NCBI GenBank assembly: GCA_043797985.1
Contig: JAZDPB010000147.1
Span: forward strand, 1 to 39,870
Direction: 5' to 3'
Origin: Chloroflexota bacterium
GTDB taxonomy: Bacteria > Chloroflexota > Dehalococcoidia > Dehalococcoidales > UBA2162
DNA length: 39,870 nt
Part shown: positions 12,124 to 38,307 of the stretch, piece after piece
Numbering within the stretch: the first letter of the stretch is position 1
How the letters are laid out: the number at the start of each line of letters is the position of its first letter
Made by a program: the position numbers and the translations under genes
Notes under the pieces: generated by a model
What the model was told of the DNA's origin: nothing
Database searches by the model: none
What the model saw: only the letters and a program-made list of their open reading frames with translations

Positions 12124-12132
12124 GGACCGAGG

Positions 12133-12168: not shown

Positions 12169-12199
12169 TTTATTAAACCTTCATCTATAACGATACGAG

Positions 12200-13657: not shown

Positions 13658-13674
13658 AGTATCCTCCCAATCAA

Positions 13675-14085
13675 TTATATATCAAAGATAACCTGTACCT
13701 GGTTTTTCTCCTTGTCTACCTTGAGCATATGATAGGTAGCAGATTTGATACCTATCTTCAGGTGATGCCGCGACGAGTCATATTTTTCACCATGACATAT
13801 TGCCTTCAGATTGTAGCCGTCAAATTCGCTGATATCAAACCTTTTGAGAAGAAGCATTTCTACATCAAAAAGGTAAATAAGACGGTTAAGCCATTCGAAT
13901 AATAGCGCCTCTGAGTCTCCTTCGCTGACCTCTATAACACGATTCTCCACCCCCCTCACCGTTCTAAGGTCGGCAATGATAGAGAACATACCATAGGCCG
14001 CATTGGCAAATGCTTCAGCCAGCGTGCTCCCATAGGCAACCAGACCGGTATCGGCTGTGTGTTCTATAAGCTTAAATCTTTTCAC
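13675..14085 (-). CDS. Archease (RtcB cofactor)
   Basis: EHTAD, LLFEWLNRLIY, IKSATYH, C-terminal VIFDI; adjacent to rtcB. Confidence 0.93.
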   Translation of the reverse strand: MKRFKLIEHTADTGLVAYGSTLAEAFANAAYGMFSIIADLRTVRGVENRVIEVSEGDSEALLFEWLNRLIYLFDVEMLLLKRFDISEFDGYNLKAICHGEKYDSSRHHLKIGIKSATYHMLKVDKEKNQVQVIFDI

Positions 14086-19140: not shown

Positions 19141-19911
19141 ATGGCAGGGTCTGATATGAATAAACCTGAAATTCTACAAATCCGTAAACGAGATGGCTCC
19201 ATAGTCCCTTTTAATCCCGATAAGATTCAACAAGCGCTATACAAGGCACTGGTGGCAACTGGAATGGATGAGGCAGGGTTGGCTGATGAACTGGCGACTC
19301 AGGTGGTAAAGCTCGTTGAGGCGCGGCTCAGCCAGACCACCCCCACAGTAGAACAGGTGCAGGATATTGTGGAAGAAGTGCTGATGAAACGAGGTCACCC
19401 CAATGTAGCCAAGGCTTACATCCTCTATCGCCAGCAAAGGGCAGATGTGCGCAGACTGAAGGGGACCATTGGAGTGCGCGATGATTTGAAGCTCGGTATC
19501 AATACCATCAAAGTGCTGGAACGCCGGTATCTGCTAAAGGATGAAGATGGCAATATCATCGAAACTCCGACAGGACTGTTCCGGAGAGTAGCTCACACCC
19601 TTGCTTCCGCAGAGACCAACTTCAACCCGGTAGCAGACATCGAAAGCCTGGAGCGTACTTTTTTTGAAATGATGAGTAACCTTGAGTTTCTCCCGAATAC
19701 GCCGACACTTACACAAAATATTCACCGGATTTACAGGCTGGCTTACGAACTTAAGTGTAAGGGCATAACCGTATATCGCTATGGCAGCAAGAAAAAACAA
19801 GTCTTGAACCTTGCTGGTCACATACCGGAGATAGCAGCCGAGCCAACGCCATACGTTACCGCTGAATCAGAATATGCTGGAGGTTGCCCTTACGGAACTT
19901 GCCCCTTCTAG
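19141..19911 (+). pseudogene. nrdJ: Class II (B12) ribonucleotide reductase with ATP-cone; large in-frame internal deletion
   Basis: ATP-cone IRKRDG..VPFNPDKI...VEQVQDIVE...VAKAYILYR, VLERRYL, FLPNTPTL joined at ~19710 directly to C-terminal AYELKCKGITVYRYGS...CPYGTC. The NPCGE catalytic core is absent. Confidence 0.88.
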
Positions 19912-22613: not shown

Positions 22614-24530
22614 ATGCCAGCATATAAAGTGACCTTTCTACCTGAGAATAAGGAGATTGAGGTAGAGAAAGGTACGACACTGCTCGAGGCGGCCGAGAAA
22701 GCTGGAGTCTTTATTAACAGTGTCTGCGGTGGTGAGGGATTATGTGGTGAATGCCGTGTCCAGGTAGTTAGCGGTAACGCCAAGGCAGATAAACACGCTA
22801 TCGGCTTCTTTTCCAAGGAGGAGATAGTCAGCGGTTATGTCTTAGCCTGCCAGACCGGGGTGGAAGATAATCTGGAAGTACTAATTCCGGCCAAATCCCG
22901 TCTGGAAATGGAAAAGATTATCACTGGAGAGGCACCTATAACCTACTGCGAGCCCGGAAAAGCATCATTACATAGGCTGCCTTGTGACCCGGCTTCTCTG
23001 TTTGAGCCACTGGTTACCAAAGTGTATCTCCAGCTTCCCCAGCCATCCCTCAACGATAATATCTCTGACATAGACCGGATAATCCGGGAGCTGAGGAAGA
23101 AGTTAAACTATTCTTCTTACGAAATATCGCTCGCTTGCCTGCAGGGCTTGGCTGACAAGCTGCGACAGTGCAACTGGAAGGTCACCGCCACTATAGCCAG
23201 GCATAATAATATAGGGCGTGTGATTCAGATAGAAGAAGGTGAAACAACTGATAAGAACTACGGCCTGGCCGTTGACGTAGGGACAACCACAGTGGTCGTC
23301 CAGATGATCGACCTCAAAAACGGCGATGTTATCGGCGTAGAAGCCAACCATAACCTGCAGGCACGCTACGGAGAGGATGTCATTTCCAGGATGATATTCG
23401 CATGTGGACGGGGTTCACTCGACCAACTTCACCAGGCTATAACTATCAACATTAATGCCCTGACCCGAGCGCTAGCTAAGGAAAAGGGTATTAACGCTAA
23501 AGATATTAACTGCGTTGTTGCCGCCGGTAATACCACCATGTCCCATTTTCTATTGGGGCTGATGCCGTGCGCTATACGCCTGGAACCTTATGTCCCCACG
23601 GCTACTGTTTACCCCCAGATACTGGCAAAAGAAATCGGGCTTGATGTCAACCCCAATGCCGTAGTGGAAGTGTTACCCAGTGTCGCCAGCTATATCGGAG
23701 GCGACACTGTCGCCGGTATCCTCGCCTGCGGGCTGGCCGACAGACCAGAAAACAGCTGCCTTATCGATGTCGGCACCAATGGGGAAATCGCCATTGGCAA
23801 TAATGAGTGGATTGTTTGCTGTTCCGCCTCGGCAGGTCCAGCGTTTGAGGGTGGAGGCATCAAGTGGGGCATGCATGCCACCAAAGGTGCCATCGAAAAG
23901 ATACAGGTGAAAGACGGACACGTCAATTATGAGACTATAGGCAAAGCAAAGCCCAGAGGCATCTGTGGTTCCGGGCTTATCGATTGTCTCTACGAGCTGG
24001 TGCGTAACAGAATAATAGGTCAGGACGGTAAATTCAATCCTAATGTCGAAGATAAGCGTATAGTCGTTGGCAATGACGGACCTCAGTATATACTCGCCTT
24101 TCCCGATGAAACGGAAACTGGGCAGCCGGTAACTATCACTGAAACAGATATTAGCAATCTCATCAAGTCCAAGGGTGCCGTCTTTGCTGCTTTCAAGTCT
24201 TTAACTGATTATGTAGGGTTGAGCTTCGACAAGCTGGAAATGGTCTATCTGGCAGGTGGGTTTGGCAGTTCTCTTAATGTTTACAAAGCCATCAATATAG
24301 GACTATTACCTGATATAGATATCAACCGGATTCAATTTATCGGCAACAGTTCAGTCATGGGAGCACGGATGGCTCTTCTTTCTGGCCCCGCCTTTGAAAA
24401 AGCGATAACTATTTCAAAGAAGATGACGAATATCGAGTTGTCCCGATACGTCCCTTTTATGAGTGAGTTTGTGGCAGCACTTTTTTTGCCGCACACAGAT
24501 AGTAAGCTCTTCCCGTCTGTCAGATACTAA
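22614..24530 (+). CDS. ASKHA-domain [2Fe-2S] protein, RACE/RamA-type reductive activator of corrinoid proteins
   Basis: N-terminal CGGEGLCGEC...LACQ, DVGTTTV, YGEDVISR, AGNTTM, DVGTNGE, SAGPAFEG, GICGSG, LAGGFG. Confidence 0.9.
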   Translation: MPAYKVTFLPENKEIEVEKGTTLLEAAEKAGVFINSVCGGEGLCGECRVQVVSGNAKADKHAIGFFSKEEIVSGYVLACQTGVEDNLEVLIPAKSRLEMEKIITGEAPITYCEPGKASLHRLPCDPASLFEPLVTKVYLQLPQPSLNDNISDIDRIIRELRKKLNYSSYEISLACLQGLADKLRQCNWKVTATIARHNNIGRVIQIEEGETTDKNYGLAVDVGTTTVVVQMIDLKNGDVIGVEANHNLQARYGEDVISRMIFACGRGSLDQLHQAITININALTRALAKEKGINAKDINCVVAAGNTTMSHFLLGLMPCAIRLEPYVPTATVYPQILAKEIGLDVNPNAVVEVLPSVASYIGGDTVAGILACGLADRPENSCLIDVGTNGEIAIGNNEWIVCCSASAGPAFEGGGIKWGMHATKGAIEKIQVKDGHVNYETIGKAKPRGICGSGLIDCLYELVRNRIIGQDGKFNPNVEDKRIVVGNDGPQYILAFPDETETGQPVTITETDISNLIKSKGAVFAAFKSLTDYVGLSFDKLEMVYLAGGFGSSLNVYKAINIGLLPDIDINRIQFIGNSSVMGARMALLSGPAFEKAITISKKMTNIELSRYVPFMSEFVAALFLPHTDSKLFPSVRY

Positions 24531-24605: not shown

Positions 24606-26642
24606 CTACTTAAACAATACTTCAGCTACCAATTCACTGATATCCCTGATATGTAAAGTTTCTTCCGCCCCCTTAGCCTTTACCCCATCTTCAAACATTA
24701 TCAAACAGTAAGGACAGGCAGTTGCCATCAGGTCTACTTTGGCTTCAATCATCTCAGCGACCCTGCGTTCATTGACACGCTGGCTAGGTTCTTCCTCCAT
24801 CCACATGTGACCACCGCCCCCGCCACAACAAAAGCTTCTTGTGCCATGTCGACTGAGTTCCACTCGCTTAAGCCCGCCAATAGCCTTCAAAATATTCCTG
24901 GGCGCTTCGTAAATTGCATTATAGCGCCCCAAGTAGCACGAATCGTGGTAAGCTATCCTCTTATCATTCAATGCCCCGAGTTTCACCTTGGCATCACGAA
25001 TCAAGTCAGCGATAAACTCGGTATGATGAACGACCTCAAAGCTGCCACCAAATTGTGGATATTCGTTTTTAAGAGTATTAAAACAATGGGGACAAGTAGT
25101 TAAGATTTTCTTAACGTTATACGATTTAAAAAGCTCGATATTACTTTCGCAGATGGTCTTAAACAGGTATTCATCACCCATTCGGCGGGCTGGGTCACCA
25201 CAGCAACTTTCTTCATTACCCAGTACCCCAAAGTTAACTCCCGCTGCCTGTAGAATCTTAACCACGGACTTAGCCACATTGGTATTCCGCTCGTCAAGAG
25301 CCGCGGTGCAACCTACCCAATACAGGATATCAATGTCCTTATTCTCCGCAAGCACCTTCAAATTCAAACCATCAAACCAAGTAGTCCTTGTCGCTGTGGT
25401 CCCTCTCCATGGATGTCCCCTGTCTCCCAGGCTCTTGAGCGCATCCTGGGCAGATTCAGGGAATTTGACTCTTACCATAGCCAGATTGCGACGCATATCT
25501 ATTATCTTGTCAACATGCTCGATGTAAACGGGACACGCTTGCTGGCAAGCGCGACAGGTAGTACAGTCCCAGATTACCTCCTCCGAAATTACTTCAGATA
25601 TCATATCTTTCCGTGACTCAACGGGTTTTTTCAGCAGAGGCACCGGGTAAACTTCATAAAGATGGTCTTTTAAGTTCAAGATGACCTGTTTGGGATTGAG
25701 CTTCTTACCACTAAAATAGGCAGGACAATCATCCTGACAACGCCCACAGCGAGTACAGGCATCAAGGTCTAGGAGTTGCTTCCAGGTAAATTCCTCAATG
25801 TTGGATACACCATATAGCTCTGTTTTCTCAAAATCTATAGGATTCAAAGCCCCTTTGGGCTTTAGCGAACGAAAGTATATGTTTAACGGTGACAATAGTA
25901 TATGTTGCAACCTGGAGTGGTTTACCCAAATATAGCCAAGAAGAATAAACGCCGGTATGGTGTGGATTATCGCACGGTGCCATACCAAGATTTCATTCTT
26001 AGCTTCAATCATAAAAGTAGGGAAGATGTGTGAAAGAAGGTAACCTACCGGCGACCACATCGCCCAATCGGTGGGATTAACGTCACTAACAGCAATACGA
26101 TAACCTTTTACCATGAGACCAGTTAATACAATCAATAATACCCAGACATAAACCAAGCTGTCTTCCGGTTTGTTATCCAGACGAGGCGGTCGGACAACAT
26201 ACCTGCGATATACTGCCATACCTCCGCCAATGAGAAGCAGCACCGCACCGACCTCAGAGACCAGAGAAGCATACAGGTATACACTCTGCGGGGGATTGGT
26301 TATACCAGTCAGATATGAAAACAGCCTGACTATCTTACCCAGGATAAGAACTGTGGCTCCACCAAAAATAAGAGCGTGCATTATACCCGGGTAAAGTTCT
26401 TTTACTCTAATAATCCGGATGCTAGCCACCGCTACTGCCATGGTGGTCGCAAGTCTCTTCCACCAATCACCGGAACGGTTATCTGGCTGTCCCAGCTTCC
26501 ACAGTCGGTAGTGACGGCTAAAACCGAAGGCAAAAAGTAGAGCCAGTAAAGGGACAAACACTAAAAAGGCAATTATGACCGGCAGGAAAACTTCTGTTAT
26601 ATAGACTTCCTGACCCGCCCAGAACAGTTCACGCAAAGACAT
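24606..26642 (-). CDS. Membrane FeS oxidoreductase (NarI-like TM + 2x[4Fe-4S] + 2 CCG domains; HdrD/FadF/ETF:quinone-oxidoreductase-like)
   Basis: N-terminal TM helices with His (MHALIF, WHRAIIH, LQH), CTRCGRCQDDCP, CTTCRACQQACP, ESCCGDP, CPHC, YHDSC, FCCGGG, ACPYC. Confidence 0.9.
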   Translation of the reverse strand: MSLRELFWAGQEVYITEVFLPVIIAFLVFVPLLALLFAFGFSRHYRLWKLGQPDNRSGDWWKRLATTMAVAVASIRIIRVKELYPGIMHALIFGGATVLILGKIVRLFSYLTGITNPPQSVYLYASLVSEVGAVLLLIGGGMAVYRRYVVRPPRLDNKPEDSLVYVWVLLIVLTGLMVKGYRIAVSDVNPTDWAMWSPVGYLLSHIFPTFMIEAKNEILVWHRAIIHTIPAFILLGYIWVNHSRLQHILLSPLNIYFRSLKPKGALNPIDFEKTELYGVSNIEEFTWKQLLDLDACTRCGRCQDDCPAYFSGKKLNPKQVILNLKDHLYEVYPVPLLKKPVESRKDMISEVISEEVIWDCTTCRACQQACPVYIEHVDKIIDMRRNLAMVRVKFPESAQDALKSLGDRGHPWRGTTATRTTWFDGLNLKVLAENKDIDILYWVGCTAALDERNTNVAKSVVKILQAAGVNFGVLGNEESCCGDPARRMGDEYLFKTICESNIELFKSYNVKKILTTCPHCFNTLKNEYPQFGGSFEVVHHTEFIADLIRDAKVKLGALNDKRIAYHDSCYLGRYNAIYEAPRNILKAIGGLKRVELSRHGTRSFCCGGGGGHMWMEEEPSQRVNERRVAEMIEAKVDLMATACPYCLIMFEDGVKAKGAEETLHIRDISELVAEVLFK

Positions 26643-26676: not shown

Positions 26677-26892
26677 TCATGCTGCCGGATAAAACGTAGT
26701 CAAATGGGCGATGAAAAAGACGACAATTATAAGGCCTACTGCCGAAAGCGCCATGACTATAGCTTTGCTATATTTCGGTCCAATTCCCAGGTCGAAAACA
26801 GCGAGTCTAACCCCATTCAATATAGAATAGACTATCGCTGCCAGTATAAGCACTTCAACAATAATGGCAATAGTTCTAATTAATATATCCAT
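26677..26892 (-). CDS. Small two-helix membrane protein
   Basis: 71 aa, two hydrophobic segments, start overlaps the upstream stop (TAATG). Confidence 0.72.
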   Translation of the reverse strand: MDILIRTIAIIVEVLILAAIVYSILNGVRLAVFDLGIGPKYSKAIVMALSAVGLIIVVFFIAHLTTFYPAA

Positions 26893-27368
26893 TATTTAGT
26901 CCTCAACTGATTGAACTGCGCCTGGACCTTACAGGCAGGACAGAGTTCTGCCTGGGAAGAAAAAGAATGACCGACAGCCATTACCCGAGACTGTAATTTA
27001 GCTATCATTGACCTGGGACCGATAGGGCTACCACAACCCGAGCACCTGACAATCGTATCCTCAAAAAGAACCGATTGGCTATCCGTTTTCTCCAACTCCA
27101 GGACATGCTCCATGTGCAAGCACTTCTCCGGGCAGATTTCTACGCACTGGCTACATGCCACACAACGGCTTTGTCTGAAGAACAGTTGAAAGCCACCGCT
27201 CTCATCAATCGTCGAAATCGTCAGCGCACCAGTAGAGCACTCCGTAACACAAAGGCAACAACCGGTACACTTCGCAGCATCTAATTCCACCTTACCAAAA
27301 GGAGAAAGTCGCTCAAGCAATTCCCGGCGACTGAGTCCATCATTATGAGTTGCTTTGATTTCACTCAT
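26892..27368 (-). CDS. 4Fe-4S dicluster protein with extra CxxC pairs
   Basis: CTGCCLCVTEC, CVACSQCVEICP, CSGC...CPAC; SRRELL near the N-terminus without a hydrophobic h-region. Confidence 0.85.
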   Translation of the reverse strand: MSEIKATHNDGLSRRELLERLSPFGKVELDAAKCTGCCLCVTECSTGALTISTIDESGGFQLFFRQSRCVACSQCVEICPEKCLHMEHVLELEKTDSQSVLFEDTIVRCSGCGSPIGPRSMIAKLQSRVMAVGHSFSSQAELCPACKVQAQFNQLRTK

Positions 27369-28615: not shown

Positions 28616-29302
28616 TTACTTTGGCAAATAAAATACCTTCGGGCTGGTACCCTTCTCTTCCTGGAGTCTTAACCACTGCCGGGATGCTAGCAAATATGAT
28701 ACAGAGCTATCAGGGTCATCTAAATCTCCAAAGCTTATAGCACGTGCCGGGCAGGCTTCAGCACATGCGGGCACTACCTCTTCACCCACCTTCTTACCCT
28801 CTCTCATCGCCTGGTCTATACGGTGGAAGCAGAACGTGCACTTCTCGACTACGCCATGAACCCGATGAGGGAAGGGCCAAATGGTCATATCAGCACGCTG
28901 GAAAGGAAGGTCAGGACGGTCGTACTCATTTTCCTCCGGTTCCTTATAGTTAAAATTCCTGACACCATAGGGGCAGGCAACAATACAGTACTTGCAACCG
29001 ATGCAACGCCTGAAGTTCTGTATCACAATCCCGTCCTCGCGGCGATAGGTTGCCCTGGCCGGGCATACCGTTACACACGGAGCGTTATCGCAGTGCATGC
29101 ATGGCATCGGTATCAGGTCAATCCTCAATGTCGGGTATTCCCCATGACTAACTGCAATTACCTTATGCCAGAAAGGAGTCAATCTCCTTTTGTGTTCCTC
29201 CGGCGACCCATGGGGTACATTGTTTTCAGTCTTACAGGCTATAGAACAAGACTGACAGCCAGTACATTTGTCCAGGTCAATAACCATTCCCCATCTTGCC
29301 AT
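28616..29302 (-). CDS. 4x[4Fe-4S] subunit of a complex iron-sulfur molybdoenzyme (NrfC/PsrB/ArrB type)
   Basis: RWGMVIDLDKCTGCQSCSIAC, PCMHCDNAPCVTVCP, CIGCKYCIVACP, KCTFC, PACAEACP, FGDLDDP. Confidence 0.93.
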   Translation of the reverse strand: MARWGMVIDLDKCTGCQSCSIACKTENNVPHGSPEEHKRRLTPFWHKVIAVSHGEYPTLRIDLIPMPCMHCDNAPCVTVCPARATYRREDGIVIQNFRRCIGCKYCIVACPYGVRNFNYKEPEENEYDRPDLPFQRADMTIWPFPHRVHGVVEKCTFCFHRIDQAMREGKKVGEEVVPACAEACPARAISFGDLDDPDSSVSYLLASRQWLRLQEEKGTSPKVFYLPK

Positions 29303-29315: not shown

Positions 29316-31676
29316 TCACGCCTTGTAGACCCTGACCCTCGTGTTGAAGCAAGCTGACTGTCCACTCAGGCGGTCATAGTCTACGCCGATAATTTCATTA
29401 GGATTGACGCCAATGCCCCTTGCCCATTTACCATAGGCATAGTGGCCCTGGCCCCTGGCTATGCTCACCACTTGGGGGTGAATGCCCTCAAAGACCCTGG
29501 CCCGTACCTTGATTTTGCCGAACGGAGATTCTATCCAAACCGTATCACCGTCGTTAATTCCTAGAGTGCGGGCTGTCTTGCTATTTATTTCAACGAAATT
29601 GGTCCAACCCCGGCCATGCATCACCAGGAATATCTCCTGAGCCCAGGGATAGTTCTGGCTCCCATTATCAATATTCAATAATGGCTGGTAGGTTGATAAC
29701 ATTAGGGGATAACTGTTACTGTCACCCAAAAATTCGACTTTCTCATAGTGCGGCAGGTATGTCAGCTTATCAATTGTCTGCCCTGTCTTTTTAAGCAGGG
29801 CTTCAAGATTGCCCGAACGGAATTCAAATTTCCTTGACGGCGTATTGAATACGCGGTCATATTTATAATATTTATAAGGTGACCCCACCCAGACACCTTG
29901 CGCAAGGAACTCCTCCCATGGTATAAGTACCTCCGTGCGGTATCTGACAAACCCCTGAGTATTATCACCAATGCCAGCAAAGGATTGCTCAACCGTACCC
30001 CCCACCCGTTTTGCCAATTCAAAAATGATGTCGACGCTACTCTTAGTGTTGTACAAGGGTTCTACCACCGGCTGCTTTATCCTTATCTCGGCGAAGCCCG
30101 AACCTGGTGGCGAGTGGTCGTAAGCCCATTCTTCCATAAATGTATTTGCTGGTAGTAGAATGTCGGCATACTCCGCCATTTCACTGACAAAGGGAGCAAC
30201 ATGGACATAATAGGGCACCTTCTGAAGCGCTTCATCCCAGCGCCATGCTCCCGGAGCAGACATATTGCAGTTACTGTTAAAACCTATAGCCATCCCGACC
30301 GGGTATGGCTTATTTTCTAATATAGAATCTGCTACCTGATTGGTGACTACTTCCGCAGCCGGGAACTGGTTTGTTTTCCGCAAATCTAACGTAGGTTTAG
30401 CCTTGCCTTCTTTGGCTATAGCATCTTCAACTGTTTCAGGTATAACTCGATATGCCGGACTCTCTTGATAAATTACCCCTCCCGGAACATCTATACTGCC
30501 GACGAGGGCGTTAAGACAGAATATGGCGTAGCTGCTGTAAGAGCCATTAGGCCAACTGGTGGCACCCCGCCCCCTCCAGGCTATCGCCGGTTTTGCCGTG
30601 GCGAATTCTCTGGCTATTTGTCGAATCATTTCGGAGGGAATACCCGTTGTGACCGCTACCTGTTCCGGACTGTAATAATTAAGTACCAGGTCTTTATAAT
30701 CATCGAAGCCCGCTGCCCAATTCTTGATGAAATCAACATCGTAAAGAGCTTCGCTTATTATTACATTAGCTATTGCCATAGCCAGAGCACCATCAGTACC
30801 GGGATTGATAGGTAGCCACTGGTCAGCCCTGAGGGCGGTAACCGAATAGCGTGGGTCGATAACTACCACCTTCGCCCGGTTAGGTCTTTCCCGGCGAATC
30901 TTACCCCACATCCTTAAACTTCTGGCTAGCGGCGTATATGATTCCAGAATACTTGCACCGAAGGACAGAATATAATTGGTTCTGGGAAGGTCGTAGGCAC
31001 TCTGGGTATAGTTGCCGTCTGCCATCCACTCGCCAGCTTTATCGGCTTCATTATTAAATCCGCCTGCGCTAACGATATTGGGTGTGCCGTAAGCATCGGC
31101 AAAGCGATAAATTATGTCCTCAGCACTGACACTGTTTAAACCACTAAGTAGCAATAACTGGTGAGGTCGCCCCTCTCCCCGGAGCACTTTTAGATGCTTA
31201 CTCACCTCGTCCAGAGCTTGTATCCAGGATATAGGAGCCCATCCGGGGTCTATCCCTCGGCCTTTCGCCGGATTAGTTCGCTTTAAGGGAGTAGCTAGTC
31301 GGTCCGGGTCATACAATACTTGAAGACCAACATGAGCACGGGCACAGTTTTCTCCCTCGGATACTTGGGATAAGGAGTTACCGGCTATCTTTACCGCTCT
31401 ACCATTGACCACTCTTACTCTGGTAGCACAACGGGTAGCACAGTTCAGACAAGACGTTGGGAGCCACTTTTCAGTGATGACACCTTCGTCAGGCAGTTTA
31501 GGAGAGGAAATGATAGAACCCAACACGGAGTGATTAAAAAAACGGCTGGCGGCAACCGCTACGCCGGCAAGTCCCGATAATTTGAGAAAGGTCCTCCGGC
31601 TTATGCCAAAGCGACCTCGGATTTCTGTCTTCGTAGCGTTCGACTCCTGTCTCCCTGTTGATGAATCAGTTACCAT
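29316..31676 (-). CDS. Tat-exported molybdopterin oxidoreductase-family large subunit (ArrA/ArxA/PsrA-like scaffold)
   Basis: SRRTFLK Tat motif; FS0 CLNCATRC...C; YDPDRL..PLKRTNP.KGRG.DP...PISW; VIDPR, PGTDGALA, EYADILLP, VEINS. Confidence 0.92.
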   Translation of the reverse strand: MVTDSSTGRQESNATKTEIRGRFGISRRTFLKLSGLAGVAVAASRFFNHSVLGSIISSPKLPDEGVITEKWLPTSCLNCATRCATRVRVVNGRAVKIAGNSLSQVSEGENCARAHVGLQVLYDPDRLATPLKRTNPAKGRGIDPGWAPISWIQALDEVSKHLKVLRGEGRPHQLLLLSGLNSVSAEDIIYRFADAYGTPNIVSAGGFNNEADKAGEWMADGNYTQSAYDLPRTNYILSFGASILESYTPLARSLRMWGKIRRERPNRAKVVVIDPRYSVTALRADQWLPINPGTDGALAMAIANVIISEALYDVDFIKNWAAGFDDYKDLVLNYYSPEQVAVTTGIPSEMIRQIAREFATAKPAIAWRGRGATSWPNGSYSSYAIFCLNALVGSIDVPGGVIYQESPAYRVIPETVEDAIAKEGKAKPTLDLRKTNQFPAAEVVTNQVADSILENKPYPVGMAIGFNSNCNMSAPGAWRWDEALQKVPYYVHVAPFVSEMAEYADILLPANTFMEEWAYDHSPPGSGFAEIRIKQPVVEPLYNTKSSVDIIFELAKRVGGTVEQSFAGIGDNTQGFVRYRTEVLIPWEEFLAQGVWVGSPYKYYKYDRVFNTPSRKFEFRSGNLEALLKKTGQTIDKLTYLPHYEKVEFLGDSNSYPLMLSTYQPLLNIDNGSQNYPWAQEIFLVMHGRGWTNFVEINSKTARTLGINDGDTVWIESPFGKIKVRARVFEGIHPQVVSIARGQGHYAYGKWARGIGVNPNEIIGVDYDRLSGQSACFNTRVRVYKA

Positions 31677-31718: not shown

Positions 31719-32678
31719 CTATGCCGTGTTTTTCTTAATTTTCTCCGTGAGCTTGGGTACCACCTGATAAAGGTCGGCAACTATCCCATAATCAGCTATC
31801 TTGAATATAGGAGCATTTTTATCTTTATTGACGGCGGCGATAATCTTGGAGTTGCGAATTCCCACCGTATGTTGAATTTGCCCCGAAATCCCGATAGAAA
31901 TACACAGACGCGGTTTACACTTCTTGCCTGAGAGCCCAACCTCTCTCTCTTCAGAAAACCACTGCCAATCATGTGCCAACGGCCGGGTACAGCCAATGCT
32001 GGCTTTCAAGACCTGGGACAGTTCTTCAATTAGCGCCAGGTCTTTCTTCTCGCTTATACCTCTTCCCACACAGATTAGAGTTTCGGCTTCCTCTATCTGT
32101 GCTGAATCGGATTTCTTTTCTTGCTTTTCCACAATCTTGGTACGCGGCTCCCGCACTTTAAGGTCAACATGAACAATTTCACCCTGCCTTGATTCCTTTT
32201 CACCCGGCTCAAAGGCTTTAGGCATTACTGAAATTACTTTCTTGGCAGTCCCAATGGATTGTGTTAATACCGTATTCCCTCCCAGAGCATACCTATCTGT
32301 TACCAGTTCCTCGTTTTGCAGCCTGATATCAATTGCATCGGTAATACATCCAGCACCCAGCTTTTGTGCCACTCTGGGTGCTAACTCTTTGCCTCTTTTA
32401 GTGGAACCGATTAGAAGAAGGTCGGCTCCATAATTATTAGCTATTTGACAGATGGCTTCAGTATAAACATCGGCATGAAAATCTTCCATCGAAGCTAAAT
32501 TGTTCCAATATACTATGTCGGCGCCGTAGGCAAAATAATCGTCTATCTTTGCCTCAGCATTCTTCCCCAGCTTTACGGCCGCCAAATTAACTTTCAAACT
32601 ATCTTTCAGCTCTTTACCTTTGGACAGGAGCTCGAAGGCAATTTCGTCTCGCTCGCAAAACACCAAAATCTCGGACAT
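31719..32678 (-). CDS. fixB: Electron transfer flavoprotein alpha subunit (FixB/YdiR-like)
   Basis: VGRG, CTRP, VGLSG, GISGQIQH, NKDKNAPIF..ADYGIVADL. Confidence 0.92.
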   Translation of the reverse strand: MSEILVFCERDEIAFELLSKGKELKDSLKVNLAAVKLGKNAEAKIDDYFAYGADIVYWNNLASMEDFHADVYTEAICQIANNYGADLLLIGSTKRGKELAPRVAQKLGAGCITDAIDIRLQNEELVTDRYALGGNTVLTQSIGTAKKVISVMPKAFEPGEKESRQGEIVHVDLKVREPRTKIVEKQEKKSDSAQIEEAETLICVGRGISEKKDLALIEELSQVLKASIGCTRPLAHDWQWFSEEREVGLSGKKCKPRLCISIGISGQIQHTVGIRNSKIIAAVNKDKNAPIFKIADYGIVADLYQVVPKLTEKIKKNTA

Positions 32679-32680
32679 AA

Positions 32681-33463
32681 TCAGCCCCCTAATACTCCTT
32701 CCTTTAAGAGTGAGTTAACCAGACTATCTATATTCTGGTCGGAGTCTCCTTCGAGGATGACCAGCTTCCTCTGCTCCACTGGTGCCAAATTACTTAGCAT
32801 TTTGATTTGTTGTCCCCCCACCTCATCAGCCGTGACACCAATGTTCGAGCTTTTCCACTCCTGCAGCGGCTTCCTTGAAGCGCGTAAAATCTGAGTCAGA
32901 GATGGTATCCGAGGCTCGTTTATGCCGCTGGTGATGGTAATTACAGCCGGCAGTTGGGCTTCAACTACCTCAAAACATTCCTCTACGCTTCTCACTGCTT
33001 TTACTTTGTTGTCAGCAAACTCTATTTGCTTAACATAGGTTATTACTGGTAAATCAAGAAGTTCAGCCAGTCTCGGTCCTGTCTGTCCCGAGTAACTATC
33101 GGCTGAGCCTTCTCCCAGGAGTATGAGGTCATATTTACCGATTTTCTGTATTGCCTTCATCAAAACCTGGGCTTTCCCCATAGAATCGAGATTATCAAAT
33201 AAGGGGTCGATAAGAATGACAGCCTCATCGGCACCTACAGCGAGAGCATCTTTTATGGTGTCTCTGAGTTTTGGTGAGCCTAAGGATAGGGCAATTACCT
33301 TTCCGCCTGACTTTTCCTTGATTTTGACAGCTTCTTCCAGGGCATTTCTATCCATGTCACCAAATAAGAAGGGCAATCCCTCCGTTACCGGCTCTCTGGT
33401 ATCTTTCTTAATCCTGACCTGTTGCAGGTCGACTACCTGCTTCAAACATACGATTATGTCCAT
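32681..33463 (-). CDS. fixA: Electron transfer flavoprotein beta subunit (FixA/YdiQ-like)
   Basis: IIVCLKQV, DRNALEEA, ALAVGAD, GEGSADSYSGQTG, NEPRIPS. Confidence 0.92.
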   Translation of the reverse strand: MDIIVCLKQVVDLQQVRIKKDTREPVTEGLPFLFGDMDRNALEEAVKIKEKSGGKVIALSLGSPKLRDTIKDALAVGADEAVILIDPLFDNLDSMGKAQVLMKAIQKIGKYDLILLGEGSADSYSGQTGPRLAELLDLPVITYVKQIEFADNKVKAVRSVEECFEVVEAQLPAVITITSGINEPRIPSLTQILRASRKPLQEWKSSNIGVTADEVGGQQIKMLSNLAPVEQRKLVILEGDSDQNIDSLVNSLLKEGVLGG

Positions 33464-33475
33464 TTAGTTGTCCTT

Positions 33476-33757
33476 TCAGCCGAATTTTAGCTGTATACCA
33501 AACCCTCCGCGAGGATAATTCCAAATCAAAGCATTCCGCTGACAGGCAATTTTACAGGTGCCACACTCCAGACAGCCATCAAGGTCCAGCTCGATTACGC
33601 CCTCCTTATTCAAAGTATAAACCTGTGCCGGACATACATAAAGACAATATCGTTCACGGCAGTCCTGACATATCTCCTGGTTGACAGTAATATGCTTAAC
33701 GGTATCAACCTTGATAGTATCCGTGCCTAACTTAGCTTTTACATTTGTCTTCGTCAT
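33476..33757 (-). CDS. fixX: FixX ferredoxin-like protein
   Basis: HI...CQDC...CLYVCPA.VY...GCLECGTC..AC...W.YPRGGFG; start ATG 33757 overlaps the fixC stop (ATGA). Confidence 0.9.
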   Translation of the reverse strand: MTKTNVKAKLGTDTIKVDTVKHITVNQEICQDCRERYCLYVCPAQVYTLNKEGVIELDLDGCLECGTCKIACQRNALIWNYPRGGFGIQLKFG

Positions 33758-35037
33758 ATCTTGAAAGCTCCCCAGATATCTTTGAGTAACGAGGGACAAA
33801 GTCGCCTGACTTGTCCAAACACTGTGCTCGATAATTTTTTCTTCGGCTCATCCCCGATAAACATGAGCTTCTCCATAGTATCACCGAAAAACTGAGGATA
33901 TAATGTGAATAGATTACGGTTGTTAAGGAAGCGCGGCGCCCCCTTGAAGGTATTTAAATCCTTCATTATGAAGCTATCCCTCAGTAAAAGTTCATAATAC
34001 GAGAGGGATTGTTTGGAAAAATCCTTCTTCTCCACAGCTCTCTTTATGGCCTTAGCTGCCAAAACACCGGAAGCTAAGGCAAATTCCATACCCCTCACTG
34101 TAAGGCCGGTATTGAGTGTGAAGCCAGCAGCATCCCCAGCCACGAGAATGCCATCCGAATACAGGCGAGGCATAGTGTTAATCCCGCCCTCAGAAATAGT
34201 ATGGGCAGAGTACTCGACTGTCTCTCCACCTTTGATTAGGCTGGCTACCTCGGGACGCTCCTTAAATTCATCTATGAGTTGAGGTGCTTCAATGGTGGGC
34301 TGTCTCTCCATTAAGTCTTTTATTCCTACTACTATCCCCAGGGAGATACTTCCCAGATTAGTATATAAAAATCCACCCCCGAACATCCCTCTGGTTAGCG
34401 AACCAACGTAGAGTTGGGCGGCACCCTCACCATTTTCCAGATTGAAGCGCTCTTCTATCGTCTGGGATGGCATTTCGATGATTTCCTTGATGCCGACAGC
34501 AAAATCTTTTGGCTGGTGGTTCCCCCTCAGTCCTGCCTTCTGGGTAATCAAGGAGATAGCCCCATCGGCAACGAGCACTACATTGGCATAGATTTTATCC
34601 TCTCCAGCAACTATCCCCTGGACTTTCCCGCTTTCCTGGATTAAATCATCCACCTTTTGTTTCGTGACTACCATGCCACCAGCCTCAGCTACCTTTTCCG
34701 AAAACCACTTGTCGAACTTAGCTCTGAGGATAGTAAAGCTATGATAGGGCTTCTCTCTGAACCTTTCACTGGATAACCGAATAGAGGTAGAAGATTTTTC
34801 ACCCATAAGGGTTATTATCTCCTGACACACATATCTTTCCAGCGGGGCTTCGTCCCAGATATCAGGCAAGAGATGCCTTACGGGATTGAGGTAGAGCCTG
34901 CCTCCGGTAACATTCTTAGCCCCGGAGTAATCTCCTCTTTCTACTACCAGAACCTCAATCCCATCTTTCGCTAAGCAATAAGCAGCCGCCAAGCCCGCCA
35001 GACCACCACCAACTACGATAACTTCAAACTTCTCCAT
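33754..35037 (-). CDS. fixC: FixC flavoprotein (ETF:quinone oxidoreductase-like)
   Basis: VVGGGLAG, ERG.YSGAKNVTGG, APLER, GGGFLYTN, EYSAH.I.EGG, AGDAAG, RGM. Confidence 0.93.
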   Translation of the reverse strand: MEKFEVIVVGGGLAGLAAAYCLAKDGIEVLVVERGDYSGAKNVTGGRLYLNPVRHLLPDIWDEAPLERYVCQEIITLMGEKSSTSIRLSSERFREKPYHSFTILRAKFDKWFSEKVAEAGGMVVTKQKVDDLIQESGKVQGIVAGEDKIYANVVLVADGAISLITQKAGLRGNHQPKDFAVGIKEIIEMPSQTIEERFNLENGEGAAQLYVGSLTRGMFGGGFLYTNLGSISLGIVVGIKDLMERQPTIEAPQLIDEFKERPEVASLIKGGETVEYSAHTISEGGINTMPRLYSDGILVAGDAAGFTLNTGLTVRGMEFALASGVLAAKAIKRAVEKKDFSKQSLSYYELLLRDSFIMKDLNTFKGAPRFLNNRNLFTLYPQFFGDTMEKLMFIGDEPKKKLSSTVFGQVRRLCPSLLKDIWGAFKI

Positions 35038-35073
35038 TCTTTCCCTTATTGACTCTGGTGGTTCAGGGCAGCC

Positions 35074-36294
35074 TTATGTTGTTATAAAGTCACTGCCAAA
35101 AGCATCTCTGCCGATGATAATTTTCATTATATTGGCAGCACCCTCGGCTCCAGCGACATAGGACATGACTCCTCTCATAGCCATCTCTAGAGGCGAATCC
35201 TTGGTATAGCCAAAAGCGCCCAGTACCATGATGGCATGCTTGGCAACATCCACTGCCAGGAGCGGTGCCAGCCATTTGCATTGAGCGATTACGATGTTTA
35301 TATCTTTCTGCGTGAAGCTACCAGGTTCAGAGTAATACTTGTCTATCATCCAGCATCCCTTCTGAAGCAGAAGTTTCAACATTTCCAGCCTGGTATAGTC
35401 TTCAGCCAATTCAAACGTTATTCCCTGGAACCTGCTTAAAGTCCGACCAAACGCTGTCCTTTGCTTGGCATAATCGAGAGCTATTTCCAAACACTTCTCG
35501 GAAGCTCCTAAGCAGGCAGAAGATACTACAGCCCTAGCTACGTTAAAGCCCTCCATACAGTGGTAAAAGCCCCTTCCTTCTTCACCTAACACATACTTCT
35601 CCAAAACTTCCGTGTTCTTGTAGGTGAATCCACCCGTGGAAAGACCCATACGCCCCATGTCCTTATAGGTGGTACTACTCATACCATTAACCTTACTGGG
35701 CATGATTGCCAGCAAAGTCATCCCACCTCGGAGACCCTTGGCTGGGTCGGTGACAATAAGGGTACAATGGCCACCTCCCCTTACCTGAGACTCAGTCACC
35801 TGACTGATATAGGCTTTCTCGCCATTTAATATATATTTACCATTCTTCTTGGTAGCCGTAGTCTTAATAGCCGCTACGTCAGAGCCACCGCCTGGTTCGG
35901 TGACGGCGATGCCCCAGCACCATTCGCCAGAAGCTAACTTGGGTAAAATCTCTCTCTTTACTTCCTCTTTAGCGTAGAGTCTCAGGAACTGTCCGCCCCA
36001 ACCAACAGTCAGTAAGGTATACACTGGAAGTGACATACTTAACTCTGCCCGGGCCAACTCATGGACTACAACGTTAGCGTATTGCATTTCCTCACCTGGC
36101 ATAGCTGAACCGCCATACTCTTCGGGAACAACACACCCGAAGACTCCTATCTCAGCGAGTCCCTTCAACATTTCATCGGGAATGCCTGCTTCCTTTTCAT
36201 CTATTTCTCTTGCCCTCGGTTCAACATTCTTCTGGCAATACTCTCTCACCGCTCTTTTGAAAAGTTCTTGCTCATGGGACATTCTAAATTCCAA
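35074..36294 (-). CDS. Acyl-CoA dehydrogenase family protein
   Basis: VPEEYGG, VTEPGGGSD, LNGEK.YIS, LGEEGRGF, R.AFGR.L..FQ, LGAFGY, GAEG (catalytic Glu position). Start uncertain (TTG 36294 or ATG 36282). Confidence 0.93.
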   Translation of the reverse strand: MEFRMSHEQELFKRAVREYCQKNVEPRAREIDEKEAGIPDEMLKGLAEIGVFGCVVPEEYGGSAMPGEEMQYANVVVHELARAELSMSLPVYTLLTVGWGGQFLRLYAKEEVKREILPKLASGEWCWGIAVTEPGGGSDVAAIKTTATKKNGKYILNGEKAYISQVTESQVRGGGHCTLIVTDPAKGLRGGMTLLAIMPSKVNGMSSTTYKDMGRMGLSTGGFTYKNTEVLEKYVLGEEGRGFYHCMEGFNVARAVVSSACLGASEKCLEIALDYAKQRTAFGRTLSRFQGITFELAEDYTRLEMLKLLLQKGCWMIDKYYSEPGSFTQKDINIVIAQCKWLAPLLAVDVAKHAIMVLGAFGYTKDSPLEMAMRGVMSYVAGAEGAANIMKIIIGRDAFGSDFITT

Positions 36295-36453
36295 ATCTAC
36301 GATACCTCCTCAATTATTTTATCTTATGGATTTATAATCAAAGACTAACTATAAAATAGTACGTAAAACTACTACATTCTCAAATCACCCAAACTCAAGT
36401 TTGTACCACTTTCAGTTTGCTGTCAACACCTCCTTCCACCTGGTATATCAGTA

Positions 36454-38307
36454 TTAACCTCTGGGATAAAGGTCTTTAGCAACATCGTCCAATCCTAATT
36501 CCTGTAGCTTTTTCTTACTTGGTTTGGTGGTTTTAGTGTCCCAGTCCATTGTCATCATATACTCATCAACCATTGTTTTCTCATCAACGGTCACACCAGC
36601 CAGAGGACCCGCTTTCTGTGGTGGAATACCCACTAATCTGTCCGGCACCTTAAACTTTAATGGGTTCAAACCCTCGCGCAGATTAAAGGCATGACGCATA
36701 TTGGCAATCCTCTCACCAGTTTTAAGCATATCGTTAAGAGTTACGTTCCATCCGGTGATAGCACTCATGAACTCAGGGACAGCTTGAGCGGTAGGTAGAG
36801 TAACATACATAAACATACACATCCCGGCGGAGTTCATAATGTGGGTTAGGTTGCTACCCCTCTTATGGCCTTCACCACGACCGCTGAAGGACTTGGGATT
36901 GAATTTGTCGACTAAGCCTGGCGGGACAAATCCTTCCGAACCCTGAGTATGGCGAGCCGGCGTTGCATCCATTCGGTAGGTTGTAGCATAGTGATATCCC
37001 AGCTTGGAGTCATGAGCCGGAAGTTCTTCCCCTTGAATATGCATCGCATATTTTTCTGACCCTTTCCCGATTTTCTCTGCCGCCTTCTTGACACCATCAG
37101 CAATAACAGCACCAAAGCCTTCTCTCCTGGCGAGTTTCTCCGTCATGGCAATAATCGATTGGTGATTACCCCAGGTCATCTCGATACCACCGGTATCCTC
37201 TTTCGTAATAAGCCCATTCTCATAGCATTCGATAGTAAAAGCGATGCTTGCTCCGGCTGAGATAGTATCGATGCCGGCGCGATTACAAATATCGTTGGCT
37301 TTAATTATCGATTCGACATTATTATTAAGGCAGTTGCTGCCGAACATACAGAGTGTTTCATATTCTGGCTTATGGGCTCCAGCCTCATATTCATATTCCT
37401 TGCCTTCTTTCATGAGGCCACCGCACCCAAAGGGACACCGGAAACAGGCATATTTCTTCGACTGCCGCTCCATGATTGGATCAAGCCCAATCGGAGCAGG
37501 ATTCGGGAAATCGACAACGCCAACACCACCCCAGTTCTTGACTGGCGAATCGCCATTGAGAGCAGATTGCGCAGTAATGGCTGGAGTACCAAAATCACGG
37601 AACATCTTGGCAAATGGCTCTCTCAGTTCAGTTATATATTTCCTTCGTAGCTCATTGGCTTTTGTTTCATCAGCCATCGGAATCTTCATATTGCCGATAA
37701 CTGCCACAGCCTTGACCTTCTTTGCTCCCATAACAGCACCTAAACCAGAGCGGCCTGCAGCTCTGCCTTTATTGTTCATGACTGCAGCGATGAGCGAAAG
37801 TTTCTCTCCGGCTGGACCAATACTGCATGAGTGAATATCCTTACCCAATTCGGCTTCGAGCGCATCCTCAGTTTCAAAGGTGTCCTTACCCCACAGGTGA
37901 GCTGCGTCTCTCAACTCAGCTTTGCCATTATTAATAAAAACATAGACCGGCTTTGGCGATATTCCGGTGAAGAAGACCCCATCGTAACCAGCGTATTTCA
38001 GAAAGGGGCCAAAATCCCCACCCGAGTTAGCATCCCCCCAGGTTCCGGTTAATGGCGATTTACCCACGACCACGTATCTGGTGCCTGATAGAGCAGGAGT
38101 GCCCGTAAATGGTCCCGTAAGAATCCCCAAGATAGCATCCGGGCCTAACGGGTCAACGCCACCCTTTTGGCGGGAATAGATAATTTTGGCACCCAACCCA
38201 TAGCCACCAATGAAATCCCGACAGAGCTTCTCATCCAGTGCTTCATCCTTTAGCTTCCCTTTGGAAAGGTCAACCCATAGTATCTTACCCATATAACCTC
38301 TGGACAT
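36454..38307 (-). CDS. aor: Aldehyde:ferredoxin oxidoreductase (tungstopterin family)
   Basis: KSPLTG, SIGPAGE, AAGRSGLGAVMGAKKVKA, CFRCPFGC, PEYET, GIDTIS, GMCMF. Confidence 0.93.
   Translation of the reverse strand: MSRGYMGKILWVDLSKGKLKDEALDEKLCRDFIGGYGLGAKIIYSRQKGGVDPLGPDAILGILTGPFTGTPALSGTRYVVVGKSPLTGTWGDANSGGDFGPFLKYAGYDGVFFTGISPKPVYVFINNGKAELRDAAHLWGKDTFETEDALEAELGKDIHSCSIGPAGEKLSLIAAVMNNKGRAAGRSGLGAVMGAKKVKAVAVIGNMKIPMADETKANELRRKYITELREPFAKMFRDFGTPAITAQSALNGDSPVKNWGGVGVVDFPNPAPIGLDPIMERQSKKYACFRCPFGCGGLMKEGKEYEYEAGAHKPEYETLCMFGSNCLNNNVESIIKANDICNRAGIDTISAGASIAFTIECYENGLITKEDTGGIEMTWGNHQSIIAMTEKLARREGFGAVIADGVKKAAEKIGKGSEKYAMHIQGEELPAHDSKLGYHYATTYRMDATPARHTQGSEGFVPPGLVDKFNPKSFSGRGEGHKRGSNLTHIMNSAGMCMFMYVTLPTAQAVPEFMSAITGWNVTLNDMLKTGERIANMRHAFNLREGLNPLKFKVPDRLVGIPPQKAGPLAGVTVDEKTMVDEYMMTMDWDTKTTKPSKKKLQELGLDDVAKDLYPRG

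Follow-up and report, generated by a model that had tools for sequence, protein, structure and literature searches.

A Cys-less relative of the arsenate reductase catalytic subunit as putative outer head of an EMO-coupled electron conduit in Chloroflexota

The protein considered here, P0001, is encoded on a 39,870-nucleotide stretch of DNA from a Chloroflexota bacterium of the class Dehalococcoidia (contig JAZDPB010000147.1; this whole stretch is referred to as the window). It is a MopB-like protein whose best match of known structure is ArrA, the catalytic subunit of respiratory arsenate reductase. P0001 and the other members of its family lack the Cys residue that ligates Mo in ArrA, retain the cysteines of the FS0 [4Fe-4S] cluster, and are encoded next to an iron-sulfur (FeS) protein, an NrfD-family membrane protein and a protein of the EMO type, that is, related to the electron transfer flavoprotein (ETF):menaquinone oxidoreductase. 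The explanation that we favour, giving it about the same weight as all of its competitors combined, is that P0001 is an FS0-bearing outer head with a dead Mo site in an EMO-coupled electron conduit that resembles the Dsr, Hmc and Qrc complexes.

An ArrA-related family without the molybdenum ligand

The segment at positions 30990–31160, to which an earlier sequence-only reading of this DNA had drawn attention, falls inside the minus-strand open reading frame (ORF) of P0001 (Table 1); a plus-strand reading of the segment was rejected because its translation is nonsense. P0001 contains the Pfam domains Molybdop_Fe4S4, Molybdopterin and Molydop_binding, the set of a catalytic subunit that carries molybdenum or tungsten on a bis-pyranopterin guanine dinucleotide cofactor (Mo/W-bisPGD). 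Among the NCBIfam models, ArrA (NF041714) ranks first with 480.4 bits, below its curated cut-off of 1600, and the lower matches include PhsA (309 bits, cut-off 694) and QrcB (NF041783; 261.9 bits, cut-off 440). When all PDB chains were searched with phmmer, ArrA of Shewanella sp. ANA-3 (6cz7_A) came first (E 2e-121; identity to ArrA is ~33–40%), and the same chain is the closest structure found by Foldseek (template modeling (TM) score 0.86) for an AlphaFold2 model of P0001 that was built from a 70-sequence alignment and has a predicted local distance difference test score of 91.8. Matches in the ESM Atlas are to generic molybdopterin-oxidoreductase clusters only. The FS0 cysteines (C76, C79, C83 and C111) and the twin-arginine translocation (Tat) signal, both described as intact in the earlier reading, are present as stated, and in 74 family rows the two Tat arginines, R27 and R28, show 99% conservation. 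Parts of the P0001 gene, amounting to at most 0.34 of the sampled words, occur in six public DNA sequencing runs from three studies; among the public runs, no RNA run is listed as holding the gene.

The principal claims of the sequence-only reading, namely that Asn occupies the position of the Mo-ligating Cys, that the codons at this place are TTT AAT AAT GAA with no in-frame TGA, that RGRY has become SGLN, and that the C-terminal EGR motif is altered, are all borne out by comparison with ArrA. On the minus strand, the segment reads ...LLLLSGLNSVSAEDIIYRFADAYGTPNIVSAGGFNNEADKA..., the four codons specifying F207-N208-N209-E210. In the phmmer alignment, GTPNIVSAGGFNNEADK of P0001 is paired with GSPNNISHSSVCAEAHK of ArrA without gaps and with the top posterior probability, which places N208 on the Mo-ligand Cys193; LLSGLNS is likewise paired with LLRGRYS, and YQPLLNIDNGSQNYPW with QKSRLNKEGRTANSPW, so that DNGSQN stands where ArrA has EGRTAN. 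The residue numbers of ArrA correspond to the chain index of 6cz7_A plus 40, which reproduces the numbering quoted in the available part of PMC13685797, where the active site is described as comprising RGRY 163–166 and residues 189, 193, 198 and 210. Of these, P0001 retains just Gly164 and Lys198; C193 is replaced by N208, R165 by L180, Y166 by N181, H189 by A204, and Y210 by Q225. The Arg of the EGR motif, present in 10 of the 10 Arr-like clade representatives, has given way to G672 in 181 of the 184 family members. Selenocysteine at the ligand position was ruled out, the codon being AAT and the ORF containing no in-frame TGA. The Ser of the IVS motif, Ser203, which the earlier reading had named as a possible canonical ligand, aligns with the Ser beside the Cys in ArrA; since ArrA has this Ser as well and does not use it as a ligand, Ser203 is no substitute ligand by homology.

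The loss is a property of the family and not of a single genome. A word-indexed protein search with P0001 returned 1637 proteins at E <= 1e-30, the best 120 of which are 66–94% identical to it and, where named, come from metagenome-assembled genomes of Chloroflexota/Dehalococcoidia, and a scan of species genomes yielded 73 loci in Dehalococcoidia/Chloroflexota and Thermodesulfobacteriota, the latter labelled Syntrophaceae, Syntrophus, Syntrophorhabdus or 'delta proteobacterium'. A first count with a regular expression gave Glu 43, Asp 42, Asn 13, Gly 4 and Val 1 at the ligand column (103 of 121 proteins fit the pattern and 18 did not), and the genome loci gave Asp 35, Glu 16, Asn 5 and Gly 4 (60 of 63 full-length proteins fit). 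In a MAFFT alignment of 184 full-length members, position 208 is Asp in 81, Glu in 75, Asn in 18, Gly in 8, and Val and Thr in one each. As to the question raised in the earlier reading, whether homologues keep Asn, Asp or Ser at this position, Asp and Asn recur, Ser does not occur, and Glu is a major state. Retention of Cys in close homologues, which that reading had named as the mark of a private loss of function, is not seen; because none of the 184 members has it, the loss of Cys is not due to chance or to sequencing error. A decaying pseudo-enzyme, or a private loss in one genome, could appeal to the fact that Asn208 is a minority state among dominant Asp and Glu, a single transition away from Asp (AAT versus GAT). 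This explanation is hardly credible, being refuted by the 184 intact members in two phyla, by the 139 of 725 positions that are near-invariant in the alignment (entropy below 0.1 bit), and by a gene order that is kept in 37 of 37 loci.

The ligand loop and the remainder of the pocket have evolved in different ways. State changes were counted on a FastTree phylogeny of the 184 rows, from the building of which column 208 was left out. Position 208 shows at least 35 changes, which puts it in the 73rd percentile of the 725 positions (median 15), and the counts for positions 204 to 209 are 39, 39, 26, 9, 35 and 39; within the loop, E210 (182/184) and K213 (165/184) are kept. The replacement of R165 by L180 is universal (184/184), and those of Y166 by N181, of H189 by Gly or Ala and of the EGR Arg by G672 are family-wide as well, with Q674 and Y676 present in all 184 rows and N675 in 181. 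Judging from these alignments, the old ligand loop is free to vary, and other walls of the pocket have been replaced by a new fixed set of residues.

It is improbable, in our estimation, that another residue has taken over as the metal ligand and that the protein is a Cys-, Asp- or Ser-ligated molybdoenzyme. There are three candidates. Cys387 (codon 30516–30518, minus strand) is invariant in the family (74/74), Ala or Ser taking its place in the Arr-like proteins and in the remaining groups, whether Cys-bearing or Cys-less; residue 205 is acidic in most members (160 of 184 rows have Asp or Glu); and the third is Ser203. Position 387, however, lies within a helix of the P0001 model (residues 378–391) and, given the Ala or Ser found there in other MopB groups, looks like a packing position; position 205 has undergone 39 changes on the tree and position 203 has undergone 19, and Ser203 has the ArrA counterpart discussed above.

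The 26 Cys-bearing representatives were used to define a cofactor-binding signature of 104 columns, each conserved in 80% or more of them. Of these columns, 86 are retained in the family, compared to 61 in nine QrcB-like representatives and 53 in 101 other Cys-less representatives. Nine columns separate Cys-bearing from Cys-less proteins: the family keeps D123, D274 (of the DPR motif), D295 (PGTD) and G371, and has lost K128, H204, C208, T336 and R672. In 13 of the 14 rows of the Thermodesulfobacteriota branch, D274 is in turn replaced by Asn, His, Gln or Ser. Retention of the columns is weak evidence for cofactor binding, because it is partly expected from kinship with the Arr-like clade.

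This kinship, which the sequence-only reading had proposed as descent from the Arr/Arx clade, is supported by phylogenetic analysis. An exhaustive search of representatives at 50% identity yielded 150 top matches, 138 of them full length; among 136 full-length representatives outside the family, 26 have Cys at the aligned column (27 in a first alignment). The nearest Cys-bearing proteins, P0123 and P0124, are 50–52% identical to P0001 and carry the canonical ArrA signatures LRGRYT, HSALC(A/D)EG.K and EGRS. A quick IQ-TREE phylogeny (LG+G4, 69 rows, built without named reference sequences, with support given solely by the Shimodaira-Hasegawa-like approximate likelihood ratio test, SH-aLRT) recovers the 20 sampled Cys-less family members as one clade (SH-aLRT 100) and P0123/P0124 as its sister (92). 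Both lie inside a 30-row Arr-like clade (100), the remaining members of which are Cys-bearing, and a QrcB-like Cys-less clade (100) is found elsewhere in the tree. Within the family, 8 rows form a Thermodesulfobacteriota-type branch (100) and the other 12 a Chloroflexota branch (99). On the basis of this topology, the Cys was lost within the Arr-like clade, independently of the QrcB-like proteins.

As a separate observation, 110 of the 136 nearest full-length representatives outside the family (among P0122–P0271) have no Cys at the ligand column, ~96–100% of these Cys-less representatives retain the first three FS0 cysteines, and none of 58 representatives scanned from P0122–P0271 reaches any curated NCBIfam cut-off. 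Cys-less, FS0-bearing MopB-like proteins thus seem to be very common and largely unnamed, with the qualification that the alignment of the loop is uncertain at this distance (49% gaps).

The gene module and its neighbourhood

The gene for P0001 is followed on the same strand by genes for the FeS subunit, the NrfD-family subunit, a small ferredoxin and the EMO-type protein (Table 1). The best PDB match of the FeS subunit is ArrB (6cz7_B, 1.4e-47), and its NCBIfam scores are 217 bits for QrcC (cut-off 400), 200.2 for DsrO (200) and 177 for ArrB (450). For the NrfD subunit, the top NCBIfam models are DsrP and QrcD, both under their cut-offs. Its AlphaFold2 model has 10 long helices and is most similar, by Foldseek, to ActC chains of alternative complex III (ACIII; TM score 0.73), whereas the eight-helix PsrC is matched partially (0.40). 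With the GTG start listed for it, the NrfD ORF would begin 61 nucleotides before the FeS gene ends (28616–28676, minus strand); the true start is probably located further downstream, because most homologues match only from about residue 20–27 and the model shows disorder as far as residue 25.

The EMO-type protein combines, in one chain, a NarI-like cytochrome b, a 2x[4Fe-4S] region and two CCG domains. It matches PDB chain 9ojn_A with an E-value of 9.9e-110 and has five hydrophobic segments, and its residues H89, H222, H227 and H247 are invariant among 45 sequences. The structure 9OJN is that of MsEMO, an ETF:menaquinone oxidoreductase, according to the available text of a preprint (10.64898/2026.08.18.745454). 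Upstream of the P0001 gene, Pfam and NCBIfam assignments define a same-strand block that extends over 31719–38307 and begins, at a gap of 42 nucleotides, with the ETF genes. The EMO-type protein of the window is a candidate acceptor of electrons from ETF and a candidate reductant of (methyl)menaquinone. When quinone synthesis genes were looked for in five genomes, MqnA was found in 0/5, MenD over its cut-off in 0/5, MenA over its cut-off in 1/5 (G033) and UbiA-family proteins in 5/5.

Conservation of the neighbourhood was explored by tblastn with the window proteins in 37 loci whose sequence continues for 7.3 kb or more beyond the MopB gene on its downstream side. Since the order MopB, FeS, NrfD, EMO-type is kept in all 37, the conserved unit is a four-gene module; this invariable linkage to an EMO-type protein, the feature that tells us most, had been overlooked in the sequence-only reading. 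ETF genes are found within the locus in 5 of the 37 cases and acyl-CoA dehydrogenase in 4, and because of the former count, the linkage to ETF is not a conserved part of the module. The upstream block of the window, from the ETF genes to the AOR-family gene, is a local addition. Three loci (L062, L064 and L073) contain two EMO paralogues, one beside etfBA upstream of MopB (41–42% identical to the EMO-type protein of the window) and another that closes the MopB-FeS-NrfD module. Since a paralogue other than the module-linked one adjoins etfBA in these loci, the module-linked EMO may have another cytoplasmic partner. Both paralogues of L073 are about equally similar to 9ojn_A (344 and 386 bits), and several loci have a third EMO-like gene, 27–32% identical, a few kilobases downstream. 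A complex prediction for the NrfD subunit with the membrane domain of EMO gave a score of 0.00, which carries no weight in either direction as regards binding. The 33 window ORFs scanned include no cytochrome c family protein, and no dsr, hydrogenase or dehalogenase genes are present in the window.

The 158-aa ferredoxin encoded between the NrfD and EMO-type genes is an accessory component. Its start, ...LSRRELLERL..., resembles a twin-arginine motif and is not followed by a hydrophobic segment; its weak NCBIfam matches include NapF (30.9 bits, cut-off 102). NapF is a cytoplasmic FeS protein that acts on NapA before export, and the 158-aa ferredoxin might, by its sequence, serve in maturation or carry electrons in the cytoplasm.

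Table 1. Positions of the features of the P0001 gene, of its neighbours and of two Cys-bearing ArrA-type clusters; positions refer to the window except in the last two lines, which refer to the respective loci
Feature	Positions	Strand	Remarks
Cys-less ArrA-clade MopB-like subunit (P0001, 786 aa)	29316–31676	minus	single ORF, no internal stop
Twin-arginine motif SRRTFLK, aa 26–32	31581–31601	minus	Pfam TAT_signal 19.9 bits, under 22.7 cut-off
FS0 [4Fe-4S] motif C76-x2-C79-x3-C83...C111	31344–31451	minus	all four Cys in 184/184 family rows
G179-L180-N181, in place of ArrA G164-R165-Y166	31134–31142	minus	G 182/184, L 184/184, N 181/184
Former active-site loop GTPNIVSAGGFNNEADK, aa 197–213	31038–31088	minus	N208 codon AAT at 31053–31055
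D-N-G-S-Q-N-Y, aa 670–676, in place of ArrA E-G-R-T-A-N-S	29649–29669	minus	by alignment
Four-cluster FeS subunit, 228 aa, 16 Cys in four motifs	28616–29302	minus	no signal peptide, no transmembrane segment
NrfD-family membrane subunit, ~10 transmembrane helices	27378–28676	minus	Pfam NrfD; start codon uncertain
2x[4Fe-4S] ferredoxin, C-terminal CxxC...CxxC, 158 aa, accessory	26892–27368	minus	in 24/37 long loci
EMO-type protein, 678 aa: NarI-like cytochrome b with five transmembrane segments, 2x[4Fe-4S], two CCG	24606–26642	minus	Pfam Nitrate_red_gam + Fer4 + CCG x2
EtfA	31719–32678	minus	upstream of MopB gene; gap 42 nucleotides
EtfB	32681–33463	minus	upstream
FixX	33476–33799	minus	upstream
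FixC	33754–35037	minus	upstream
Acyl-CoA dehydrogenase	35074–36294	minus	upstream
AOR-family oxidoreductase	36454–38307	minus	upstream
ArrA-type cluster L087 (G051)	7309–13362		RGRY/HSALC MopB, ArrB-like FeS, TorD-type chaperone, 386-aa poly-ferredoxin, MobB
ArrA-type cluster L088 (G033)	7743–11439		RGRY/HSALC MopB, ArrB-like FeS, TorD-type chaperone

The absence of a TorD chaperone from the operon, pointed out in the sequence-only reading, was confirmed and can be extended. A Pfam scan of the 33 window ORFs detected no TorD-type protein (PF02613), no match to this family was found in the genome of the window (76% complete) or in four other carrier genomes (88–97% complete; 0/5 in all), and when two ArrD-like proteins served as tblastn queries, the best E-value in the window and 78 family loci was 0.011, the cross-control giving 1e-33. 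The supply of cofactor is not limiting: MoeA and a MobA-like protein are encoded in the genome, as are further MopB proteins, two of whose genes contain an in-frame TGA. Searching 301 Dehalococcoidia genomes with P0123 retrieved both members of the Cys-less family (L081–L084) and genes with the FRGRY...HSALC signature (L077, L078, L080 and L085); the Cys-bearing ArrA-type genes of Dehalococcoidia are 52–53% identical to P0123 and are not among the 69 rows of the tree described above. None of the 17 genomes listed for the order to which the window belongs (11 of them single-contig and ~99% complete) gave a match to this query at E <= 1e-100. Of two metagenome scans for the genomic context of P0123 and P0124, the first yielded no locus and the second yielded three, all of the Cys-less family. 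In the two genomes where the flanks of Cys-bearing RGRY/HSALC genes were examined (Table 1), an ArrB-like FeS gene and then a PF02613 protein follow, with MobB in one, and neither NrfD nor an EMO-type gene is adjacent. The PF02613 match in G033 lies next to its ArrA-type gene. A small ORF upstream in L087 has a weak match to cytochrome c7 (23.2 bits, under the cut-off).

Taken at face value, the top NCBIfam, PDB-sequence and fold matches, all to ArrA, and the adjacent ArrB-like FeS gene might suggest that P0001 is a working respiratory arsenate reductase or an arsenite oxidase of the ArxA type. We regard this as very improbable: the score reaches less than a third of the curated cut-off, Cys193, R165, Y166, H189 and Y210 are all replaced, no ArrD was found, and genes of the ArrA type that have every motif are found apart from this family in the class.

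Scaffold or enzyme

According to the explanation that we favour, the MopB-like protein would be the Tat-exported outer head of a module completed by the FeS, 10-helix NrfD and EMO-type proteins, and its former Mo site would no longer be a metal-ligating catalytic centre, the FS0 cluster and the fold having been kept. On the cytoplasmic side, the EMO-type protein would exchange electrons with ETF or another soluble carrier. Electrons would then cross the membrane via hemes b and quinone, or by direct contact, to the NrfD/FeS pair and would end in FS0 of the head, which might serve for docking or for the exit (or entry) of electrons, in the way of QrcB, ActB or DsrJ/HmcA in their own complexes; the flow of electrons could also be reversed. 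The data show the changes in sequence and their pattern of conservation across the family, the origin in the tree, the linkage of the genes and the folds; that Mo/W-bisPGD is absent, which way the electrons flow and what the outer partner is are matters that we infer.

A non-working Mo site is favoured by the unconstrained ligand loop, the loss of the basic residues that bind the oxyanion, the missing chaperone, the partner of the ActC/DsrP type and the Dsr/Hmc-like architecture. The type of partner is informative in that the 10-helix NrfD proteins pair with non-standard 'catalytic' subunits, including the cofactor-less QrcB and ActB, as described in the available part of Duarte et al. 2018 (PMC6303296). 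The sequence-only reading had left two alternatives, a non-catalytic electron-transfer scaffold and a Mo/W enzyme with an unusual protein ligand or none. The evidence leans to the former, with the free ligand position, the lack of a TorD-type chaperone and the ActC/DsrP-like partner on its side, and a ligand-free Mo/W site stays as a serious rival.

Several observations weigh against the dead site. Because the FS0 cysteines are invariant, electrons probably still enter the subunit, which fits a working redox site; QrcB, for its part, has no redox cofactors according to the available part of PMC13059093. The retention of 86 of the 104 conserved MopB columns points the same way, although it may reflect kinship with the Arr-like clade. 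The new pocket has not decayed, and the invariance of L180, N181, Q674, Y676 and C387 suggests, as far as the alignment can tell, a specific ligand or contact. Some Mo-bisPGD enzymes, moreover, do without a TorD-type chaperone or a protein ligand, arsenite oxidase being an example of an enzyme with no protein ligand.

These observations lend themselves to a rival explanation that we hold to be rather unlikely but serious, in which Mo- or W-bisPGD is still bound without a protein ligand, as in AioA, the arsenite oxidase, and the subunit carries out a new reaction outside the membrane, its substrate being neutral or cationic and not an oxyanion. Together with the EMO-type protein, such an enzyme would form a complete redox loop that disposes of, or takes up, the electrons of ETF-linked acyl-CoA metabolism. 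In addition to the invariant FS0, this explanation would account for the retained MopB columns, which include D123, D274 and D295 that Cys-less representatives lack, for the newly invariant pocket (extended by E210 and N675), for the MoeA, MobA-like and other MopB genes of the genome, including those that contain TGA, and for the apparent retention of Tat export. It would also agree with the place of the module beside EMO, just where the reverse-loop model for Syntrophus, as given in the available text of preprint 10.64898/2026.08.18.745454, has a Mo/W formate dehydrogenase that faces the periplasm. It is harder to reconcile with the variability of the ligand position and of the whole loop, where Gly, Val and Thr are tolerated, with the lack of a TorD-type chaperone that Cys-bearing relatives have adjacent, with the loss of the DPR Asp in 13 of the 14 rows of one branch, with the loss of the EGR Arg, and with a type of NrfD partner that goes with cofactor-less heads. 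The more specific version, an active ligand-free Mo/W-bisPGD enzyme with a remodelled non-cationic pocket, hard-wired to EMO as a self-contained (reverse) redox loop, is unlikely in our view. If it were true, Dehalococcoidia and syntrophic Thermodesulfobacteriota would pass the electrons of acyl-CoA oxidation to an outside acceptor, or take up electrons from an outside donor, by means of a new enzyme, derived from arsenate reductase, that serves as an output of respiration or syntrophy.

Relation to known systems and other genes of the window

The system resembles the heads of QrcB and ActB combined with the conduits of Dsr and Hmc, and is a member of none of these by curated scores or defining features. 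With ArrA, P0001 shares the fold, the Tat signal, the FS0 motif, an ArrB-like partner and membership of the Arr-like superclade. It differs from it in that the family is without Cys193, has xGLN for RGRY, has H189, Y210 and the EGR Arg replaced, and is accompanied by no ArrD, by a 10-helix, ActC-like NrfD partner and by an EMO-type gene that is always adjacent. The similarity to QrcB and to the B1 domain of ActB consists in a MopB-like outer subunit that has no canonical metal ligand and works with four-cluster FeS and 10-helix NrfD partners. Unlike QrcB, the family appears, from its position in the tree, to be of independent origin, has kept its FS0 cysteines and scores 262 bits against the required 440. 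A multiheme cytochrome c such as QrcA or ActA is not found among the 33 window ORFs scanned, and the MopB and FeS proteins, fused in ActB, are products of separate genes here, the ActC-like nature of the membrane partner being defined by its fold.

The architecture is shared with DsrMKJOP and HmcABCDEF, in that a DsrO/HmcB-like FeS protein, an NrfD protein, a NarI-like cytochrome b and an HdrD-like CCG protein are combined, both in the window and in all 37 long loci; the four-part arrangement parallels DsrMK plus DsrOP and HmcEF plus HmcBC with a different outer head. That head is MopB-like here and a cytochrome c (DsrJ or HmcA) there, and the cytochrome b and CCG parts are fused here in a single EMO-type protein. 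The equivalog scores relative to their cut-offs are 78/350 for DsrP, 77/400 for DsrK, 76/420 for HmcB, 54/750 for HmcF and 200.2/200 for DsrO.

The EMO proteins of Syntrophus aciditrophicus and Mycobacterium smegmatis have the same NarI-like, cubane FeS and two CCG parts in one chain, and in the window etfBA lies upstream. In the preprint describing them (10.64898/2026.08.18.745454), EMO works with a separate formate dehydrogenase, MopB or NrfD neighbours are not mentioned, and the words 'molybdopterin' and 'NrfD' have no occurrence in its available text. Within the same class, OmeA/OmeB/HupX, the core of the organohalide-respiration complex of Dehalococcoides, is likewise a MopB-like, FeS and NrfD-like trio that serves as an electron conduit rather than as a known molybdoenzyme, as stated in the available parts of PMC10772276 and PMC6303296. 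OmeA is set apart from P0001 by its description in the accessible portion of PMC5736913, as it is formate-dehydrogenase-like and has Ser at the ligand position. No description of the Cys-less family or of the EMO-MopB-NrfD module was found in the literature searched.

The family has consequences for annotation, since pipelines based on loose hidden Markov models or best hits could count it as arrA and overstate the potential for arsenic respiration in the groundwater, wetland and sediment Chloroflexota and Thermodesulfobacteriota that carry it. The family can be told apart from the true ArrA-type genes that the class also contains by a simple check of Cys193, RGRY and arrD. From the evolutionary standpoint, it would represent a second, independent, comparatively recent and widespread conversion of a molybdoenzyme subunit to a Cys-less head of an NrfD-type complex, and the ~50% identity to intact enzymes, together with the retention of FS0, makes it a good system in which to study how a catalytic subunit becomes a scaffold. 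In bioenergetic terms, the linkage to EMO, a family of enzymes for which the transport of ETF electrons into the membrane was shown recently, makes the module a candidate for partnership in membrane electron transfer from or to ETF, both in syntrophs and in non-dehalogenating Dehalococcoidia, where the exit of electrons from acyl-CoA oxidation is still debated.

Among the other genes of the window, a RACo/AcsV-type corrinoid reductive activase (22614–24530, plus strand; AcsV 655 bits, cut-off 800) is encoded just past the EMO-type gene on the opposite strand. The ATP-cone and the all-alpha N-terminal domain of ribonucleotide reductase are all that a 256-aa ORF at 19141–19911 (plus strand) contains. 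This ORF, behind which comes a class-V aminotransferase, may be a truncated or split ribonucleotide reductase gene. An oxygen/redox-stress and oxidoreductase cluster at 1539–7725 (plus strand) comprises a flavin reductase-rubredoxin fusion, a universal stress protein, desulfoferrodoxin, a two-subunit 2-oxoacid:ferredoxin oxidoreductase and a flavodiiron-type protein. Finally, the minus-strand interval 12200–14085 encodes an RtcB RNA ligase and archease pair, followed by a gene of the uracil-DNA glycosylase family.

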